Origin: an uncultured Candidatus Saccharibacteria bacterium
Lineage (GTDB): Bacteria; Patescibacteriota; Saccharimonadia; CAILAD01; JADZBC01
DNA length: 64,000 nt
NCBI GenBank assembly: GCA_964413715.1
Contig: CAYPSN010000003.1
Coordinates: 1-64,000 of the forward strand
Direction: 5' to 3'
Shown here: positions 18,851 to 55,657 of the stretch, piece by piece
Position numbering within the stretch: position 1 is the stretch's first letter
Layout: the number at the start of each line of letters is the position of its first letter
The notes under the pieces: generated by a model
What the model was told of the DNA's origin: nothing
The model's input: the letters and a program-made list of their open reading frames with translations, nothing else
The model's database searches: none
Position numbers and translations under genes: made by a program

Positions 18851-18851
18851 C

Positions 18852-18884
18852 AAAAACTACCACCCCTCAGGATGGTAGTTTTTA
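18852..18884. terminator. bidirectional terminator hairpin (aaaaactacca...tggtagttttt)
   Basis: hairpin flanked by A-runs and T-runs. Confidence 0.6.
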
Positions 18885-18889
18885 AATAA

Positions 18890-19535
18890 TTGCTGTAGGG
18901 CGGCGGTGGAAAGAGCGTGAGCTCTCACCACCACCGGGACGGTGCTTGGACCCGCGAAAGTCCAGGTCGGCGTGCCGGCCGACGGAAACCCTTGCGGGTC
19001 TCCCGAGGGTACCATGCAGGTTATAACCGAAAGCGGTTATAAACTTTTGACCGCATGGCGGCGAAGCTTCGCTTGGTGGGCGCAGCCTGCCCTGCAAATT
19101 ACCTGGTGCTTTACAGCACAAGGGGTCGAGTTCCGCATCATCTTCATCCGAACCGCTAAGCTCAGATTAGGAATCTACTTTCCCCAGAGCGACTTGCAGC
19201 CGTCGCTCCAGCACAACCTATAGGCTAACCGCTTTTACACCTGCGGCTAATTGTGCTGACTTTTTGTCTGGTGCCCGGGCATCCTCGGGGCTACTACAAG
19301 TTGCGCTTCGGGCCAAACCGTGCGCTCACTCCTGCGTAGTAGGCGTAATTTTTCGGGATAAGGTTTTCCTGCGGCTGCCGGCCGCTGGTTACCTCTGCTG
19401 TTGGCAGAAACTTCAGCGGTGCGGCCGCACCTCCCTAGACAAGCTTTTGAGTGGGGAGTCGCCTCCCCAGGTGCCTCCATCGGCCCGGTGCCCCGGTCCT
19501 TTAGCTGCTTCCTTCGCGCTCATTCGCACTGTCAG
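18890..19535 (-). ncRNA. candidate structured ncRNA (family unassigned); GC-rich, ORF-poor region driven by a minus-strand promoter
   Basis: about 58% GC against about 48% background; only short Ala/Arg/Pro-rich junk ORFs; dense hairpins; TTGACA-17-TATTAT upstream on the minus strand; ends at the bidirectional dnaE terminator. Confidence 0.3.
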
Positions 19536-49994: not shown

Positions 49995-52103
49995 ATGGCT
50001 CGCGAGTATTCATTAGAAAACACACGAAACATCGGTATTATTGCTCACATTGATGCTGGTAAAACGACCGTTACAGAAGGTATCTTGTACCGTACTGGAC
50101 GTGTCCATAAGATTGGTGAAGTGCACGAAGGTGCTGCAACCATGGACTGGATGGAGCAAGAGCAAGAGCGTGGTATTACGATTACCTCGGCAGCCACAAC
50201 TTGTTTCTGGAATGATAAGCGCATTAACATTATTGACACTCCAGGACACATCGACTTTACCGTAGAGGTAGAGCGATCGTTGCGTGTTCTTGACGGTGCT
50301 GTTACGGTTTTCGACGGCAAAATGGGCGTAGAGCCACAGAGTGAAACGGTGTGGCGTCAGGCCGACAAGTACGGCGTGCCTCGTATTTGCTTCATCAATA
50401 AGATCAATCAAACCGGCGGTGATTTTTACAAATCCCTCGAATCAATCCACGAGCGTCTCAGCAAGCGGGCGTACCCAATTCACTTGCCAATTGGTTTTGA
50501 GCAAGACATTAATGGCTTAGTCGACTTGGTTGAGATGAAGGCCTACGAGTACAAAGATTACACCGACAAAGAGCTAAAAGAGATTGAGATTCCGGAAGAT
50601 ATGAAAGAAAAGGTGGCTCACTACCGCCAGCACTTGATTGAAGCGGCCGTTGAGAGTGATGACTCGTTGATGGAAAAATACCTCGAAGGCCAAGAACTTA
50701 CGACTGAAGAAGTTAAGACTGCGATTCGTAAGTCAGTTCTTTCCGGTCAGTTCTATGCCGTTTCCGGCGGTGATGGTCGTGGCGTGATTGTAGAAAAGCT
50801 GCTTGACGCCGTAGTAGACTACTTGCCAAACCCACTCGACATTACCGCGCCACTTGGTAAAGATGTTAAAACTGGCGAAGACAAAGTCCTAGAAGTTTCT
50901 GATGAAGCACCGTTTGCTGGCTTGGCCTTTAAGATCGCAACCGACCCATTTGTCGGTAAGTTGGCTTTCTTCCGAGTGTATTCAGGTGTACTAAAGAGTG
51001 GTAGCTATATTCTCAATGCCTCAACGGGCGAAAAAGAGCGCGTCGGTCGAATCGTACGTATGCACGCCAACAATCGTGAAGAAGTAAACGAAGTGTATGC
51101 TGGTGAAATCGCTGCTGCAGTAGGACTTAAGAATACTATTACGGGCCACACCATTTGTGACCCTGCACACCCCGTGATGCTCGAGTCAATCACCTTCCCA
51201 GAGCCAGTTATTTCGATCGCAATTGAGCCAAAAACCAAAGCCGACCAAGAAAAGATGGGTATTGCCTTGTCTCGTTTGGCCGAAGAAGATCCGACCTTCC
51301 GTGTGCACTCTGACGAAGATAGTGGTCAGACCATCATTGATGGTATGGGTGAGTTGCACCTCGATGTGATTGTGGACCGCATGAAACGTGAATTTAAGGT
51401 AGAAGCCAACGTAGGGCGTCCTCAGGTTGCCTACCGCGAGACTATTCGCAAGTCTACTCAGATCGAAGGTAAGTTTGTGCGCCAATCTGGTGGTCGTGGT
51501 CAGTATGGTCATGTTTGGCTAGAACTTAGCCCGCTCGTTCACACCGATGACGATGAAGAGCGCAAGACATTCGAGTTTGAAAACGCCATTGTGGGTGGTG
51601 TGGTGCCCAAGGAATACATCAAGCCAGTTGAGGAAGGCGTTCGCGAAGCCATGGGTAATGGTGTTCTAGCCGGCTATCCAGTAGTCGATATTCATGCCAA
51701 GCTTTATGATGGTAGCTATCACGATGTAGACTCTTCGGAACTTGCTTTCAAGATTGCCGGCTCGATGGCACTTCAGGCAGGCGTACGCCAGGCTGACCCA
51801 GTTATTCTAGAGCCAGTCATGCGAGTTGAGATTACGACGCCAGAAGACTTCATGGGTGATGTGATAGGTGATATCAACGCCAAGCGTGGTCGAGTAGAGA
51901 AGATGGAAGATCGCAGCGGCGCTAAGATCATTAGCTCTTTCGTGCCGCTTTCTGGGATGTTTGGCTATGCTACAAGCTTGCGCTCGATGACACAAGGACG
52001 TGCTAGTTATGCTATGGAGTTTGACCATTACGCTGAAGTGCCACGTAACGTTGCCGATGAGCTTATTGGCAAGCGCCAGGCAGCCGTCGAAGAAGGTCGC
52101 TAA
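49995..52103 (+). CDS. fusA: elongation factor G
   Basis: G-domain AHIDAGKTT; AGGAAG RBS before the ATG at 49995. Confidence 0.95.
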
Positions 52104-52126
52104 GAGAAGGTCCTAAGGCTAAAACT

Positions 52127-52160
52127 AAAAAACAACCCCATTGACAGGGGTTGTTTTTTA
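52127..52160 (+). terminator. rho-independent terminator (aacaacccc attgaca ggggttgtt + ttttt)
   Basis: hairpin plus U-tract. Confidence 0.65.
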
Positions 52161-52169
52161 GTTTATTGT

Positions 52170-52672
52170 AGTTATTGTTCGTGCAAGTAGCTTCAGAGTA
52201 TGCGCTAGTTACCTAAGCAAGTTAGTTGAGACTTGTAGCTGTAATGAAAGCAGGCGTGCTGCAGCACACCACCTGTTGTGCAGAATCATCTCATTGTACT
52301 CGCCGCCATCAGAGTACTCCTCGCAGAGGCAGCTTCAGGAGAGCGCCCCGGGTTGAAGAGAGACTGAAGTTACGTTGCAAAAACTACGTATTCAGCGAAA
52401 GCTGAGTGCCCGGATGCGCATCTGGGCTGTGTGAGTAAAGGTGGGTCTAAGGATGATCACTTGGAGACCCTTAAAAACGCACAACGTAGTTGGTGGGGCG
52501 TCATGATCACGACGCCTTGACATCACCCCAGACAAGAAGCGTTCCACCACGCGATGGGGTCCGGTAATGATGTCCGCTCGGCCCGAAAGCTGTGTAGTCC
52601 TGCCTGAAGGACGCCGGTACACAAGCTTTCGGGCCGCCCGCCCCAGGCAACCCCTGGGGCATTTGTCATTTC
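52170..52672 (+). ncRNA. candidate structured ncRNA / structured spacer between fusA and tuf (family unassigned)
   Basis: about 55% GC; no credible ORF; composite hairpin at 52579-52636 (18-bp outer stem with one bulge, enclosing a 4-bp inner hairpin and a 5-nt internal loop); repeated (g/c)atgatcac loops; terminal hairpin ccccagg...cctgggg plus a U-rich tail; possible TTGACA-17-TATTGT promoter overlapping the fusA terminator. Confidence 0.3.
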
Positions 52673-52801
52673 CGGGCACCTACCTCTTTACATTTCGGCA
52701 ATTTTTACCTATAATCGAAAAGTCTAATGCCTAGGCATATTTTTTGTGACCTAAGCACAGCGCTTTTATAAAAAGATTAACCAAGCATTCAAGGAGAATA
52801 T

Positions 52802-53986
52802 ATGGCAGAAACATTTGATCGCAGTAAGCCCCATGTAAATGTCGGTACCATGGGTCACGTAGACCACGGTAAAACCACACTTACAGCTGCAATTACGCAC
52901 GTATTGGCTAAAAAGTTACCAAGCGCGGTAAACAAGCCAATTAACTATGATGAAATCGACAAGGCTCCAGAAGAGCGCGAACGCGGTATCACCATCGCTA
53001 CTTCACACCAAGAATACGAAAGTGAAAAGCGTCACTACGCTCACGTTGATATGCCAGGTCACGCTGACTACGTGAAGAACATGATTACCGGTGCTGCTCA
53101 GGTTGACGGCGCTATCTTGGTAGTATCTGCTGCAGACGGCCCAATGCCACAGACTCGTGAGCACGTACTGCTTGCTCGTCAGGTTGGTGTGCCTTACATC
53201 CTTGTTTACATGAACAAGATGGACATGGCTGATCCAGAACTAGCCGAATTGGTAGAAATTGAAATTCGCGAACTTCTTGCCAAAAACGGCTACGACGAAA
53301 ATGCGCCTATCATTAAGGGTTCTGCCCTTAAGGCTCTCGAGGGCGATGCAGCAGCTGAAGACTCTATTATGGAGCTCGTAAAAGCTATGGACGAAAGCGT
53401 TCCAGAGCCAAAGCGTGAAATCGACAAGCCATTCTTGATGCCAATCGAAGACGTATTCTCAATTAAAGGTCGTGGTACTGTTGCTACTGGTCGTATCGAG
53501 CAGGGTATCGTTAAAGTAGGTGAAGAAGTAGAGATCGTTGGTCTTCACGACACTAAGAAAACAACCGTAACTGGTGTAGAAATGTTCAAGAAATTGCTCG
53601 ACGAAGGTCGTGCTGGCGACAACGTAGGTTTGCTCTTACGCGGTATTGAACGAACTGACATCGAGCGTGGTCAAGTACTTGCTAAGCCAGGCTCAATCAC
53701 ACCTCACACTGAATTTGATGCAGAAGTTTACGTATTGAAGAAAGAAGAAGGTGGTCGACACACTCCATTCTTCAAAGGCTACAAGCCACAGTTCTACATC
53801 CGTACAACCGACGTAACTGGCGAAGTTACTCTACCAGACGGCGTAGAAATGGTAATGCCTGGTGATAACATTCAGATGAAGGTTAAACTCATCGCTCCAA
53901 TTGCTATGGAAGATGGTTTGCGATTCGCAATCCGTGAAGGTGGCCGAACTGTTGGCGCAGGTGTTGTAACCAAGATCAACAAATAA
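52802..53986 (+). CDS. tuf: elongation factor Tu
   Basis: GHVDHGKTT; 394 aa. Confidence 0.95.
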
Positions 53987-54013: not shown

Positions 54014-54334
54014 ATGCCAGAACAAGCCAACAAACAACGCATACGAATCAGACTAAAAGCCTACGACAGCAAGATTATCGATCAATCTGCTAAGCAGATT
54101 CTCGATACTGCTGTACGTACCGGTGCTCAAGTAGTGGGCCCAGTGCCGCTTCCTACGGACAAAAACAAGTTTACGGTGCTATCGAGCCCCCACGTTTTTA
54201 AAGACGCTCGAGAGCAGTTTGAAATGCGCACACACAAGCGTTTGATTGATATCACAGAGCCAACTCCTAAGACGATAGATTCTTTGATGAATCTTAATCT
54301 TCCAGCTGGTGTTGATATCGAAATCAAAATGTAA
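54014..54334 (+). CDS. rpsJ: 30S ribosomal protein S10
   Basis: [12 protein letters not shown]-terminus. Confidence 0.95.
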
Positions 54335-54419: not shown

Positions 54420-54492
54420 GGCGGACCAAAGTCATTAAATGGTTAATTACTTTGGTCCGCCCGCCTGACCCCCCGGTGAAGGGGTCAGGCGG
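54420..54492 (-). terminator. two tandem perfect hairpins (13-bp and 12-bp stems) at the 3' end of the high-GC 105-aa gene; the second overlaps its stop codon
   Basis: ggcggaccaaagt...actttggtccgcc and ccgcctgacccc ccggtgaa ggggtcaggcgg. Confidence 0.5.
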
Positions 54493-54800
54493 TATGGGCG
54501 TAAGGCTTCCCTGCAGGGTAGGGAGGCTCGAACACAGGGCGTTGATCGGAGATCTCCTGCATGCGTGCTCGTACCTTGAGCCGAAGCTCTTCGAGGCTCT
54601 CGCGATCCTGCGACACCCAGGTGAGAAGGAAAGACCTTCTCTCTCCTTCGAGCCGTTCTGAGACATGCACCGTAGGGCTGATCCCTTCAAGTGCTCGCTC
54701 GACCCACTCTGCGTTGTAAGAGGGCCGGTTTGTGAGCGAGAGAACAAGCCCCGTGCTCGTGCGATGGAGACTGAACCCCAGCGATTGAAACTCAACCATG
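54485..54800 (-). CDS. hypothetical small protein (105 aa), high GC, unknown family
   Basis: AGGAGG RBS then ATG (MVEFQSLGFSLHRTST...); the ORF extension to 54904 runs into low-GC flank. Confidence 0.6.
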
Positions 54801-54920
54801 ACCGAACCTCCTTTCACAGGTAGATTGTGGCTCGGTAGTCTGAAGACAAGATCTACAGGCTGCCGAGCACAAGACTGTGAAATTTGCAAAGTACTTAAGG
54901 TCATGCCTTAATGTGCACAA

Positions 54921-55007: not shown

Positions 55008-55609
55008 CTACGTTTGGTTCGCCCAAATTGCACCTTATAGCACCTTGAGCCTTCGGCTCTTGGAATCAGTCCCCGAATCATTGTTGGGAATTTATTCTAA
55101 GAGCCGAAATGTCGAAAATATAAAATGTGAAAATAAAATCGACAAAAGGCTCATAAAACTGTCTTGGCTCCTTGGCCTCCTTCGGGACGCCACTGGAGCA
55201 GTAGTAGTGCAAAGGTAGAGCGCCGCGCTTCCGTGGCTTCGGCCAGGACGCCACCGCGTCTCCTCGCACTGCTACAGCGCTCCACAGGAGCCAAGACACT
55301 CTTCGGCGCAATGACTGCGAACGTGCCCTCACGGGCTTCTCGCCTTTGCGTCGCCAGCGGGGCGGGATCCGCCGCCTGCTCCGCTCGGACTACGAGCGCT
55401 GAACCTGTGACTGGGCTGTTGCCCTGGCGCGGAGTATAGCCTCACGAGAGGTTGGCACACACGTCGACCTCTCTCGCTCGTGTCAACCAGCTTTGGTTGA
55501 CCATGAGCGCGACGCCGGGATCCGCCGCCTGGTGTCGCCGCCGGTGCGGGGCGGCCTCCGGGCCGCCCCGCACCTCGCCCTGACAATACGTCAGGGTTTC
55601 TTTTATTTT
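55008..55609 (+). ncRNA. candidate structured ncRNA (family unassigned) with an intrinsic terminator
   Basis: ORF-poor, about 65% GC core (55150-55600); four UUCG-closed hairpins; 12-bp long-range stem 55160/55285; 15-nt direct repeat gggatccgccgcctg at 55374 and 55517; 3' hairpins ggggcggcc/ggccgcccc and ccctgac aatac gtcaggg followed by tttcttttatttt. Confidence 0.35.
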
Positions 55610-55657
55610 AGGAATAATTTCTTCGACTCCTCATAGTTTTTATGCTTAAATAGGTAT

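Follow-up and report, generated by a model that had tools for sequence, protein, structure and literature searches.

A candidate gene for a large structured RNA between fusA and tuf in a clade of Saccharibacteria

The translation-factor genes fusA (49956/49995..52103) and tuf (52802..53986) are separated by a 698-nucleotide (nt) spacer in the stretch of DNA analysed here, a 64,000-nt window (hereafter, the window) of contig CAYPSN010000003.1 (GCA_964413715.1), from a Saccharibacteria (TM7) genome. We propose, with a probability of roughly 0.8, that this spacer holds a stand-alone gene for a structured noncoding RNA (ncRNA) of ~495 nt, predicted to lie on the plus strand at ~52176-52670 and to represent a family outside Rfam. 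The comparative sequence record makes it very probable that the spacer holds an independent, selected, structured RNA gene, and it is likely that the RNA constitutes a new family. From 5' to 3', the spacer comprises the fusA terminator, the RNA promoter, an RNA body of ~490 nt, a GC-rich hairpin, the tuf promoter, and an 80-nt tuf 5' untranslated region (UTR).

A preliminary description, made from the letters of the window, had put the spacer at ~700 nt with no credible open reading frame (ORF), in agreement with the measured length and the lack of a conserved ORF. Its figure of ~55% GC holds for the RNA body at 52176-52670 (54.3%, locally up to 60%) but not for the interval 52127-52790 as a whole, where GC is 49.5%, the same as in the whole window. 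The minus-strand ORF at 52392-52679, which it had dismissed as junk, does exist and encodes 95 amino acids (aa), but a Pfam search of this ORF returned no match and it is not conserved. A coding reading of the spacer was rejected: the longest spacer ORFs vary in strand, frame, and length by lineage, and none is conserved in position, frame, or sequence across the other lineages.

Covariation across six lineages

Among named EF-Tu clusters, those nearest to the window consist of 'Candidatus Saccharibacteria/Saccharimonadales' metagenome-assembled genomes. Relatives of the window were gathered via contigs encoding identical or near-identical EF-Tu proteins, and the distribution of the RNA is known from 18 contigs of one clade that represent six lineages: A (the window and L001-L004), B (L096-L099), C (L100-L102), D (L085), E (L086-L088), and F (L093 and L094). 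All 18 contigs carry fusA, a spacer of 693 to 722 nt, and then tuf, with the RNA always directly 5' of tuf and in the same orientation. Spacers are 63 to 81% identical between lineages, whereas the four-fold degenerate sites of fusA are only 30 to 42% identical, that is, saturated; with silent sites at saturation, the spacer has diverged less than neutral sequence. An unusually fast evolution of the RNA was considered and rejected on the same grounds.

The plus strand at 52170-52680 folds far better than its shuffled counterparts (z = -5.4; 0 of 100 shuffles), and comparable scores of -3.8, -4.75, and -5.8 were obtained from independent lineages. Minimum-energy folds computed independently for lineages A to E arrive at one architecture from differing sequences, and lineage F shares it outside the central domain. 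This architecture would consist of three domains, namely a 5' domain closed by the long-range stem P1, a central four-way junction followed by hairpin P3, and a 3' domain made up of P4, P6, and an optional P5 (positions of all elements are collected in Table 1).

The helices of both the central and the 5' domain are preserved by compensatory changes. For the central domain, we took lineage A as the sole source of a covariance model (R1), which covers 52374-52519 and uses a hand-drawn structure; R1 recovers lineages B to E at full length with E values of 1e-7 to 1e-11 and finds 0 matches in 795 kb of unrelated DNA. Of the cells in the alignment so obtained, 96.6% make standard pairs; 33 of the 39 pairs change on both sides, and none of 500 shuffles reaches any of the five measures used, while controls in which the partners were slid by 1 to 3 columns are 31 to 43% paired with 2 to 7 double-change pairs. 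The 5' domain was aligned plainly with MAFFT, and RNAalifold predicts from that alignment P1 and six inner helices, with 90.6% pairing and changes on both sides in 19 of 54 pairs (0 of 500 shuffles; 0 to 5 pairs in slid controls). These covariation controls consist of shuffles and slid columns, and the statistics ignore phylogeny. Among paired cells, G-U outnumbers A-C by 33:1 in the central domain and by 37:3 in the 5' domain, an excess from which we take the plus strand to be the functional one. Compensatory pairs beyond shuffled and slid controls, combined with such a G-U/A-C asymmetry, are the mark of a structured RNA under selection.

The 3' domain was analysed by hand and by script, since a second model (R2), derived for this domain from lineage A, left the other lineages unaligned and gave only topology-level matches to a hairpin and terminator in the S10-L3 gap. 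R2 failed because P4 is resized and a P5 hairpin is inserted or absent depending on the lineage. The scripted check found that the 3'-domain helices keep their order while their sequences differ: the outer, middle, and inner parts of P4 can form in lineages A to E, and those of P6, together with the terminator, in six of six lineages. The P6 arm corresponds to a composite hairpin that the preliminary description had placed at 52579-52636, with an 18-base-pair (bp) outer stem; the hairpin is present, with its one bulge and its 5-nt internal bulge, but the outer stem is 12+5 bp and the inner hairpin has 5 bp rather than 4. The terminal hairpin with a U-rich tail, also noted there, lies at 52640-52660 with a modest T-rich tail, ATTTGTCATTT.

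Three long-range contacts (PK1 to PK3), assigned manually to loops and examined with scripts, covary between lineages. Two hairpin loops of the window, at 52453-52460 and 52503-52510, carry ATGATCAC, and both contain the palindrome UGAUCA. The preliminary description had correctly singled out these near-identical loops, but their likeness was misread: they are complementary kissing partners, and they form PK1. PK1 amounts to 6 bp in each of lineages A to E (A, UGAUCA/UGAUCA; B, GGAAUC/GAUUUC; C, GAGAUC/GGUCUC; D, GAGAUC/GAUCUC; E, GGGGGU/ACCCUC), so that outside lineage A the two loops are not alike and yet remain complementary. In a cross-lineage matrix of duplex energies, each PK1 loop has its own partner as the best or equal best, and shuffled loops equal the observed energy in 1 to 2% of trials (14% for lineage E). 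PK2, between the 3' bulges of P4 and P6, pairs CCGGU/GCCGG in A, UCGGG/CCCGA in B to D, and CCAGA/UCUGG in F, while in lineage E duplexfold gives a 5-bp duplex (-4.9 kcal/mol) that we read as CGAG/CUCG; here too the diagonal of the energy matrix dominates, with the own partner best or equal best. PK3 joins the 5' domain to the 3' domain (A, UCAGG/CCUGA; B and D, CAGGU/GCCUG; C, UCAGGC/GCCUGA; E, CCAGGC/GCCUGG; F, UGGGG/CCCCA), and only E and F discriminate in its matrix because A to D share one P6 loop. By way of these three contacts, the RNA would fold into one compact clamped body.

The same loops could, however, pair between molecules, PK1 and perhaps also PK2 and PK3, and so give rise to dimers or RNA-only particles. 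Electron cryomicroscopy (cryo-EM) work of 2024-2025 has reportedly found that the large RNAs OLE, ROOL, and GOLLD form dimers or larger RNA-only particles. Both PK1 loops of lineage A carry the palindrome UGAUCA, the CCGG core of PK2 is palindromic too, and pairing in cis and in trans look the same at the level of sequence. Against this stand the non-palindromic partners of lineages B to E, the bases of the P2c arm and P3 lying 4 to 5 nt apart in one molecule, which suits a contact in cis, and the absence of homology to ROOL, GOLLD, or OLE. We regard self-assembly as quite unlikely and favour a single RNA clamped by contacts within itself.

A last reading to weigh against these data is that the spacer is non-functional and its hairpins are due to chance or are mere terminators. 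GC-rich sequence folds well by itself, and the minus strand of this region does so as well (z = -4.8). Chance would nonetheless have to account for 39 and 54 pairs kept by compensatory changes at a locus whose silent sites are saturated, for the G-U/A-C asymmetry, for three covarying contacts, and for a conserved promoter; barring an alignment artefact, the covariation data refute this reading, whose probability we take to be negligible.

Transcription signals and the boundary with tuf

A promoter is found directly after or inside the fusA terminator in six of six lineages, with TTGACA or TTGACC separated by 16 to 17 nt from TATGAT, TATAAT, or TATTGT. In the window, the motif TTGACA-17-TATTGT overlaps the loop of the fusA terminator, as the preliminary description had it, with the -35 box in the loop (52141-52169). 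At the other end, a GC-rich hairpin lies immediately 5' of a conserved tuf promoter in all six lineages, and in the window the 3' hairpin of the RNA ends ~26 nt before that promoter. Spaced -35 and -10 boxes and a 3' end-forming hairpin, both conserved, are the attributes that a sigma-70-dependent RNA gene would be expected to display. The RNA would thus be transcribed on its own from a conserved promoter, at a high level and in step with EF-G and EF-Tu. The ncRNA gene was one of three options left open in the preliminary description, and it is the one favoured by a conserved promoter and 3' hairpin belonging to the RNA itself and by a separate tuf promoter downstream.

The second of those options was a cis-regulatory leader. 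In its strongest form, transcription would read through a weak 3' hairpin, and the fold would respond to a protein (EF-Tu, for example), a tRNA, or a small molecule and thereby set the level of the tuf-rpsJ message. The invariant position of the RNA directly 5' of tuf and in the same orientation fits such a role, and the 3' hairpins of lineages B to F, which have no good U-tract, suggest that termination is perhaps partial or regulated. A leader should, however, reach its ORF with no promoter between the two and should contain an expression platform; here a near-consensus tuf promoter (11 of 12 positions) intervenes and is kept in all lineages and in L089, a locus that retains it though it does not have the RNA. 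No alternative pairing of the terminator/antiterminator kind with the terminal hairpin was seen in the predicted folds, and no riboswitch, T-box, or leader model of Rfam matches. To our knowledge, ~500 nt with three tertiary contacts is far above the size of known leaders. The intervening promoter thus weakens the leader option, for which the poor U-tracts leave room by way of read-through, and we judge it unlikely.

Downstream of the tuf promoter, the preliminary description had seen a second terminator at 52727-52746, and this interpretation did not hold. A terminator scan made no call there, and the palindrome ATGCC-TA-GGCAT has a 2-nt loop, so that it is effectively 4 bp with a 4-nt loop, positioned 12 nt past the tuf -10 box; an intrinsic terminator would close a transcription unit with a GC-rich stem of at least 5 bp, a loop of 3 to 8 nt, and a following U-run. 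Lying 3' of the tuf promoter, the element belongs to the tuf 5' UTR, where it is conserved, and does not terminate the transcript of the spacer. Its palindrome and T-run keep their position ~12 nt past the tuf -10 box, reading GCCTAGGC in lineage A and L086, with one arm mismatch in L085 (GCCTAGAC) and CCCGGGC in L089, and it may be a small 5'-UTR hairpin, an attenuator, or a protein operator for tuf-rpsJ.

Table 1. Predicted features of the fusA-tuf spacer, in window coordinates
Feature	Position	Strand	Details
fusA intrinsic terminator	52122..52164	+	perfect 18-bp stem, 7-nt loop, T-run; loop and 3' arm hold the RNA-gene promoter
RNA-gene promoter TTGACA-17-TATTGT	52141..52169	+	sigma-70-type, near-consensus; -35 box is the fusA terminator loop
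Predicted RNA, ~495 nt	52176..52670	+	5' end placed from the -10 box, 3' end from the terminal hairpin and tail
5' domain	52181..52380	+	closed by long-range 16-bp stem P1 (52181-52196 with 52364-52380)
5'-domain hairpin	52217-52236	+	conserved loop UAGUUGAG
5'-domain hairpin	52251-52275	+	CAGG-GUGC-UGCA-GCAC-CCUG
5'-domain hairpin	52328-52347	+	GGC-GCU-UCAGGAG-AGC-GCC; conserved as GGC-GCU(U)-CAGG-AGC-GCC
PK3	52335..52341 with 52602-52607	+	loop UCAGGAG (5' domain) with P6 loop GCCUGA
Single-stranded linker	52374..52382	+	(U)UGCAAAA(C), conserved
Central four-way junction	52383..52490	+	P2 is 52383-52389 with 52484-52490
P2a hairpin	52391-52406	+	GAAA tetraloop
P2b hairpin	52408-52427	+	
P2c long arm	52430-52481	+	internal loop; inner stem 52443-52448 with 52465-52470; 16-nt apical loop 52449-52464
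PK1	52454..52459 with 52504..52509	+	UGAUCA (P2c apical loop) with UGAUCA (P3 loop)
P3 hairpin	52495..52518	+	8 bp, 8-nt loop AUGAUCAC (52503-52510); 8 of 8 pairs change on both sides
P4 arm	52519..52574	+	outer GACAUCA/UGAUGUC, middle CCCCA/UGGGG, inner hairpin GCGU-UCCACC-ACGC
P4 3' bulge	52560-52567	+	UCCGGUAA; first PK2 partner
PK2	52560-52567 with 52613-52617	+	P4 3' bulge with P6 3' bulge GCCGG
P6 arm (composite hairpin)	52580..52635	+	12+5 bp outer stem, 5-bp inner hairpin, loop GCCUGA, 3' bulge GCCGG
3' terminal hairpin	52640-52660	+	GCCCCAGG-CAACC-CCTGGGGC, tail ATTTGTCATTT
3' hairpin and tail to 52672	52640..52672	+	written GCCCCAGG-CAACC-CCUGGGGC, tail AUUUGUCAUUUC; stem covaries in all lineages
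tuf promoter TTTACA-17-TATAAT	52687..52715	+	11/12 consensus matches; outside the RNA; kept in all six lineages and L089
Palindrome ATGCCTAGGCAT with T-run (ATTTTTT)	52727..52746	+	3' of the tuf promoter, at ~+12 of its transcript; tuf 5' UTR element

Distribution, known RNA classes, and proposed role

Outside the six lineages, the fusA-tuf locus is arranged differently. In L007 the spacer is 110 nt long and holds no RNA, in L006 a protein gene occupies the gap, and in L090, L231, and L232 fusA and tuf are not neighbours. We examined the 1.5-kb gap between the two genes in L089 as a possible homologue and rejected it, given its fold score (z = -1.85), its small membrane-protein-like ORFs, and the absence of any model match. 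At positions 1500-3000 of L089, ORFs of 65 and 70 aa (membrane-protein-like, as read by eye) and one of 119 aa stand in place of the RNA, from which it follows that the fusA-tuf junction is filled differently in different lineages. Searches elsewhere added no further copies: a five-lineage covariance model (R3) found no match in 90 other loci, R1 and R3 find a single copy in the window, and a tuf-protein search of genome contigs returned, among the matches listed, mostly Proteobacteria and at least four Saccharibacteria loci, none with the RNA. Scanning metagenome contigs with a conserved 20-mer of the tuf promoter gave 0 matches, and the motif GCTTCAGGNNAGCGCC-N20-40-TTGCA gave 120 metagenome and 8 viral matches, which we ascribe to chance because the covariance model confirmed none of them; these matches were reused as the 795 kb of negative-control DNA.

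Two further observations concern the clade that carries the RNA. A single assembly of the European Nucleotide Archive, ERZ28656156, holds L001, L101, and L088, which belong to RNA lineages A, C, and E, and several RNA-carrying Saccharibacteria species therefore coexist in one sample. The two flanking genes also group the lineages differently when the window, L096, L100, L085, L086, and L094 are compared: fusA protein identities place A beside C (0.97) and join B to D, E, and F (0.97-0.98), whereas those of tuf unite B with C (1.00) and D with F (0.99). This conflict is suggestive of a recombination breakpoint between fusA and tuf, in or near the RNA gene.

Several observations weigh against the reading of the spacer as a stand-alone gene for a new RNA, or narrow it. 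The strongest statistics come from an alignment that a covariance model had fitted to the structure and that is biased in its favour, and the paired percentage is therefore inflated, although the number of different pair types is not. The helices of the 3' domain and the three contacts come from manual assignment plus scripts. In lineage F, the central domain was not matched by R3 even with filters off; this lineage retains the promoter, PK2, PK3, P6, and the terminator, and is a remodelled variant. The U-tract of the 3' hairpin is poor in lineages B to F, which would permit read-through into tuf and hence a role in cis. Promoter, transcript ends, and abundance are all deduced from sequence alone. 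Every contig in which the RNA was seen has a tuf with 94% or higher identity to that of the window, and relatives at 80 to 90% EF-Tu identity are without it at the fusA-tuf locus, a narrow spread that makes a universal housekeeping role unlikely.

Comparison with known families did not place the RNA. A search of positions 51500-53500 with Rfam 15 (4227 models) at E<=1 returned only terminator-like noise, a scan of the whole window at gathering thresholds returned only three tRNAs, all elsewhere, and with relaxed filters at E<=1 nothing was found in the spacers of the five other lineages and L089. The preliminary description had called for an Rfam scan and for a comparison of the spacer among relatives, holding that a clean match to a known leader, or relatives with the same spacer and no conserved structure, would speak against it; no family was found in six lineages, and the structure is kept with massive covariation. 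Similarity searches (blastn) against phage and plasmid collections returned nothing, and full-text literature searches found no description of the RNA. We file it as a new family because the tests of membership in known ones fail, with no covariance-model match and the defining cores absent.

The most familiar large bacterial RNAs have to be considered individually. The RNA might be a very divergent RNase P RNA, transfer-messenger RNA (tmRNA), signal recognition particle RNA, or 6S RNA that standard models miss, as may occur in candidate-phyla-radiation bacteria. It resembles bacterial RNase P RNA in size, in a multi-domain fold with long-range loop clamps, in its GNRA tetraloop, and in a presumed high constitutive expression, and its length of ~500 nt, pseudoknots, GNRA loop, and translation-gene setting would suit RNase P RNA or tmRNA. 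It nevertheless matches neither RF00010 nor RF00011 and has neither the CR-I/CR-V elements with their P4 pseudoknot nor an end-joining P1: its own P1 closes only nt ~12-211, that is, the first 200 nt, and its 5' and 3' ends are not paired with each other. No Rfam model for tmRNA matches, neither a tag reading frame nor a tRNA-like 3' end is present, and ARAGORN finds no tmRNA in the window and no tRNA at the RNA. With no Rfam match at E<=1 in six lineages and the RNA absent at the locus from relatives at 80 to 90% tuf identity, a divergent housekeeping RNA is very unlikely.

The third option of the preliminary description, a remnant of an intron or insertion, found no support. Group I introns employ peripheral kissing loops, and PK1 to PK3 recall their P13 and P14, in which loops of separate arms pair by 5 to 7 bp, covary, and tie domains together. 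The Saccharibacteria fusA-tuf and S10-L3 junctions do take lineage-specific inserts, and introns are described as common in Patescibacteria (PMC13011429). The spacer, however, matches neither RF00028 nor RF00029, nor any retron or HEARO model, and it has no Rfam-detectable P3-P8/P7 core; it is intergenic, with its own promoter, no host gene or exons, no conserved ORF, no flanking repeats, and one copy in the window. No gene for a reverse transcriptase, IscB, TnpB, or homing endonuclease lies in or beside it, no phage or plasmid similarity was found, and the locus is fixed across lineages whose silent sites are saturated. A mobile-element remnant or passenger, whether a group I or II intron, a retron ncRNA, or a guide RNA associated with an insertion sequence, is accordingly highly improbable.

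Parallels in kind to the proposed RNA gene are offered by the 'ornate' large ncRNAs OLE, ROOL, GOLLD, and raiA, which likewise span hundreds of nt with many helices and covarying pseudoknots or kissing loops, have no coding potential, a narrow phylogenetic range, and occupy long, relatively GC-rich intergenic regions. The RNA differs from them in that none of their models, nor that of HEARO, matches at E<=1 and in that the host phylum here is Saccharibacteria. ROOL and GOLLD occur near tRNAs or prophages and OLE in the ole operon, unlike the setting here, which is fixed in the str operon (fusA-RNA-tuf). Stable RNA genes directly upstream of a tuf gene are also known from the thrU-tyrU-glyT-thrT-tufB operon of E. 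coli, and the arrangement here is alike in placing a stable-RNA gene 5' of tuf in the same orientation, so that a coupling of RNA and EF-Tu synthesis is conceivable; it differs in that the RNA here is no tRNA and that tuf has its own promoter.

Large bacterial RNAs with elaborate tertiary folds are rare, and the known ones are ribozymes or cores of ribonucleoproteins (RNPs), such as rRNA, RNase P, tmRNA, and group I and II introns, while the other elaborate large RNAs (OLE, GOLLD, ROOL, and raiA) are long-standing puzzles. The RNA would most likely act in trans, either at the core of an RNP or as a ribozyme-like housekeeping RNA tied to translation; granted that the family is new, we give a trans-acting scaffold or ribozyme about even odds. 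We lean towards regarding the RNA as the founding example of a new class of ~500-nt, multi-domain, pseudoknotted RNAs specific to a Saccharibacteria clade, which might serve these ultra-small, episymbiotic bacteria as a new ribozyme, the core of a new RNP, or a self-assembling particle. A base-pairing or antisense regulator is unlikely, because RNAs with this amount of constrained tertiary structure typically function through their shape.

A further class of large RNA would be a new object for RNA structural biology, with ~90 covarying base pairs and three contacts already in hand, and this one is part of the most conserved translation-factor operon in a host-dependent phylum with reduced genomes. 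It could point to novel biology in Patescibacteria, whose ncRNA content is almost unexplored, although its narrow distribution tempers the interest. At its length, in vitro transcription, chemical probing, and cryo-EM are feasible, and the predicted contacts allow mutational tests.

Other structured and variable elements

Downstream of tuf, the gap between rpsJ (54014-54334) and rplC contains, at 55140-55615 on the plus strand, a series of GC-rich, near-perfect hairpins (z = -11.8; z = -10.3 for its equivalent in L002) that ends in a good terminator (55577-55597 followed by a T-run) and has no Rfam match. Its interior at ~55190-55490 is only 27 to 47% identical to L002 and L003, a random level, while the flanks are 83 to 100% identical, and judged by its sequence the element is a hypervariable, apparently RNA-like hairpin cassette. 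A perfect 16-nt direct repeat, CGGGATCCGCCGCCTG, occurs at 55363-55378 and 55516-55531, at a distance of 153 nt; the first copy falls within the variable hairpin region and the second shortly past it, and the repeat could mark the borders of the cassette.

A second hypervariable segment lies ~400 nt from the cassette, at 54500-54790. It forms the middle of a 139-aa ORF on the minus strand (54485-54904) that has no Pfam or PADLOC match, and it is swapped for unrelated sequence in L002 and L003, which are otherwise 95 to 98% identical; the gene called at this site in relatives encodes 104 to 115 aa. The S10-L3 junction carries lineage-specific inserts in every Saccharibacteria locus seen. In the lineage of L090 and L091 (89% EF-Tu identity), a reverse-transcriptase gene (Pfam RVT_1; L090 6345-7185 and L091 4346-5186) lies downstream of rpsJ in this gap beside unannotated ORFs, and in L231 the gap holds two unannotated ORFs and an MgsA-like AAA ATPase.

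Far from the str operon, an ORF-free intergenic region of 56% GC (18851-19170, plus strand) contains, past the terminator of an upstream gene encoding 1209 aa, ~210 nt of hairpins with GNRA-like loops (z = -4.8). It matches no Rfam family at E<=1 and, on the strength of its predicted fold, may be a third unannotated structured RNA of the window.

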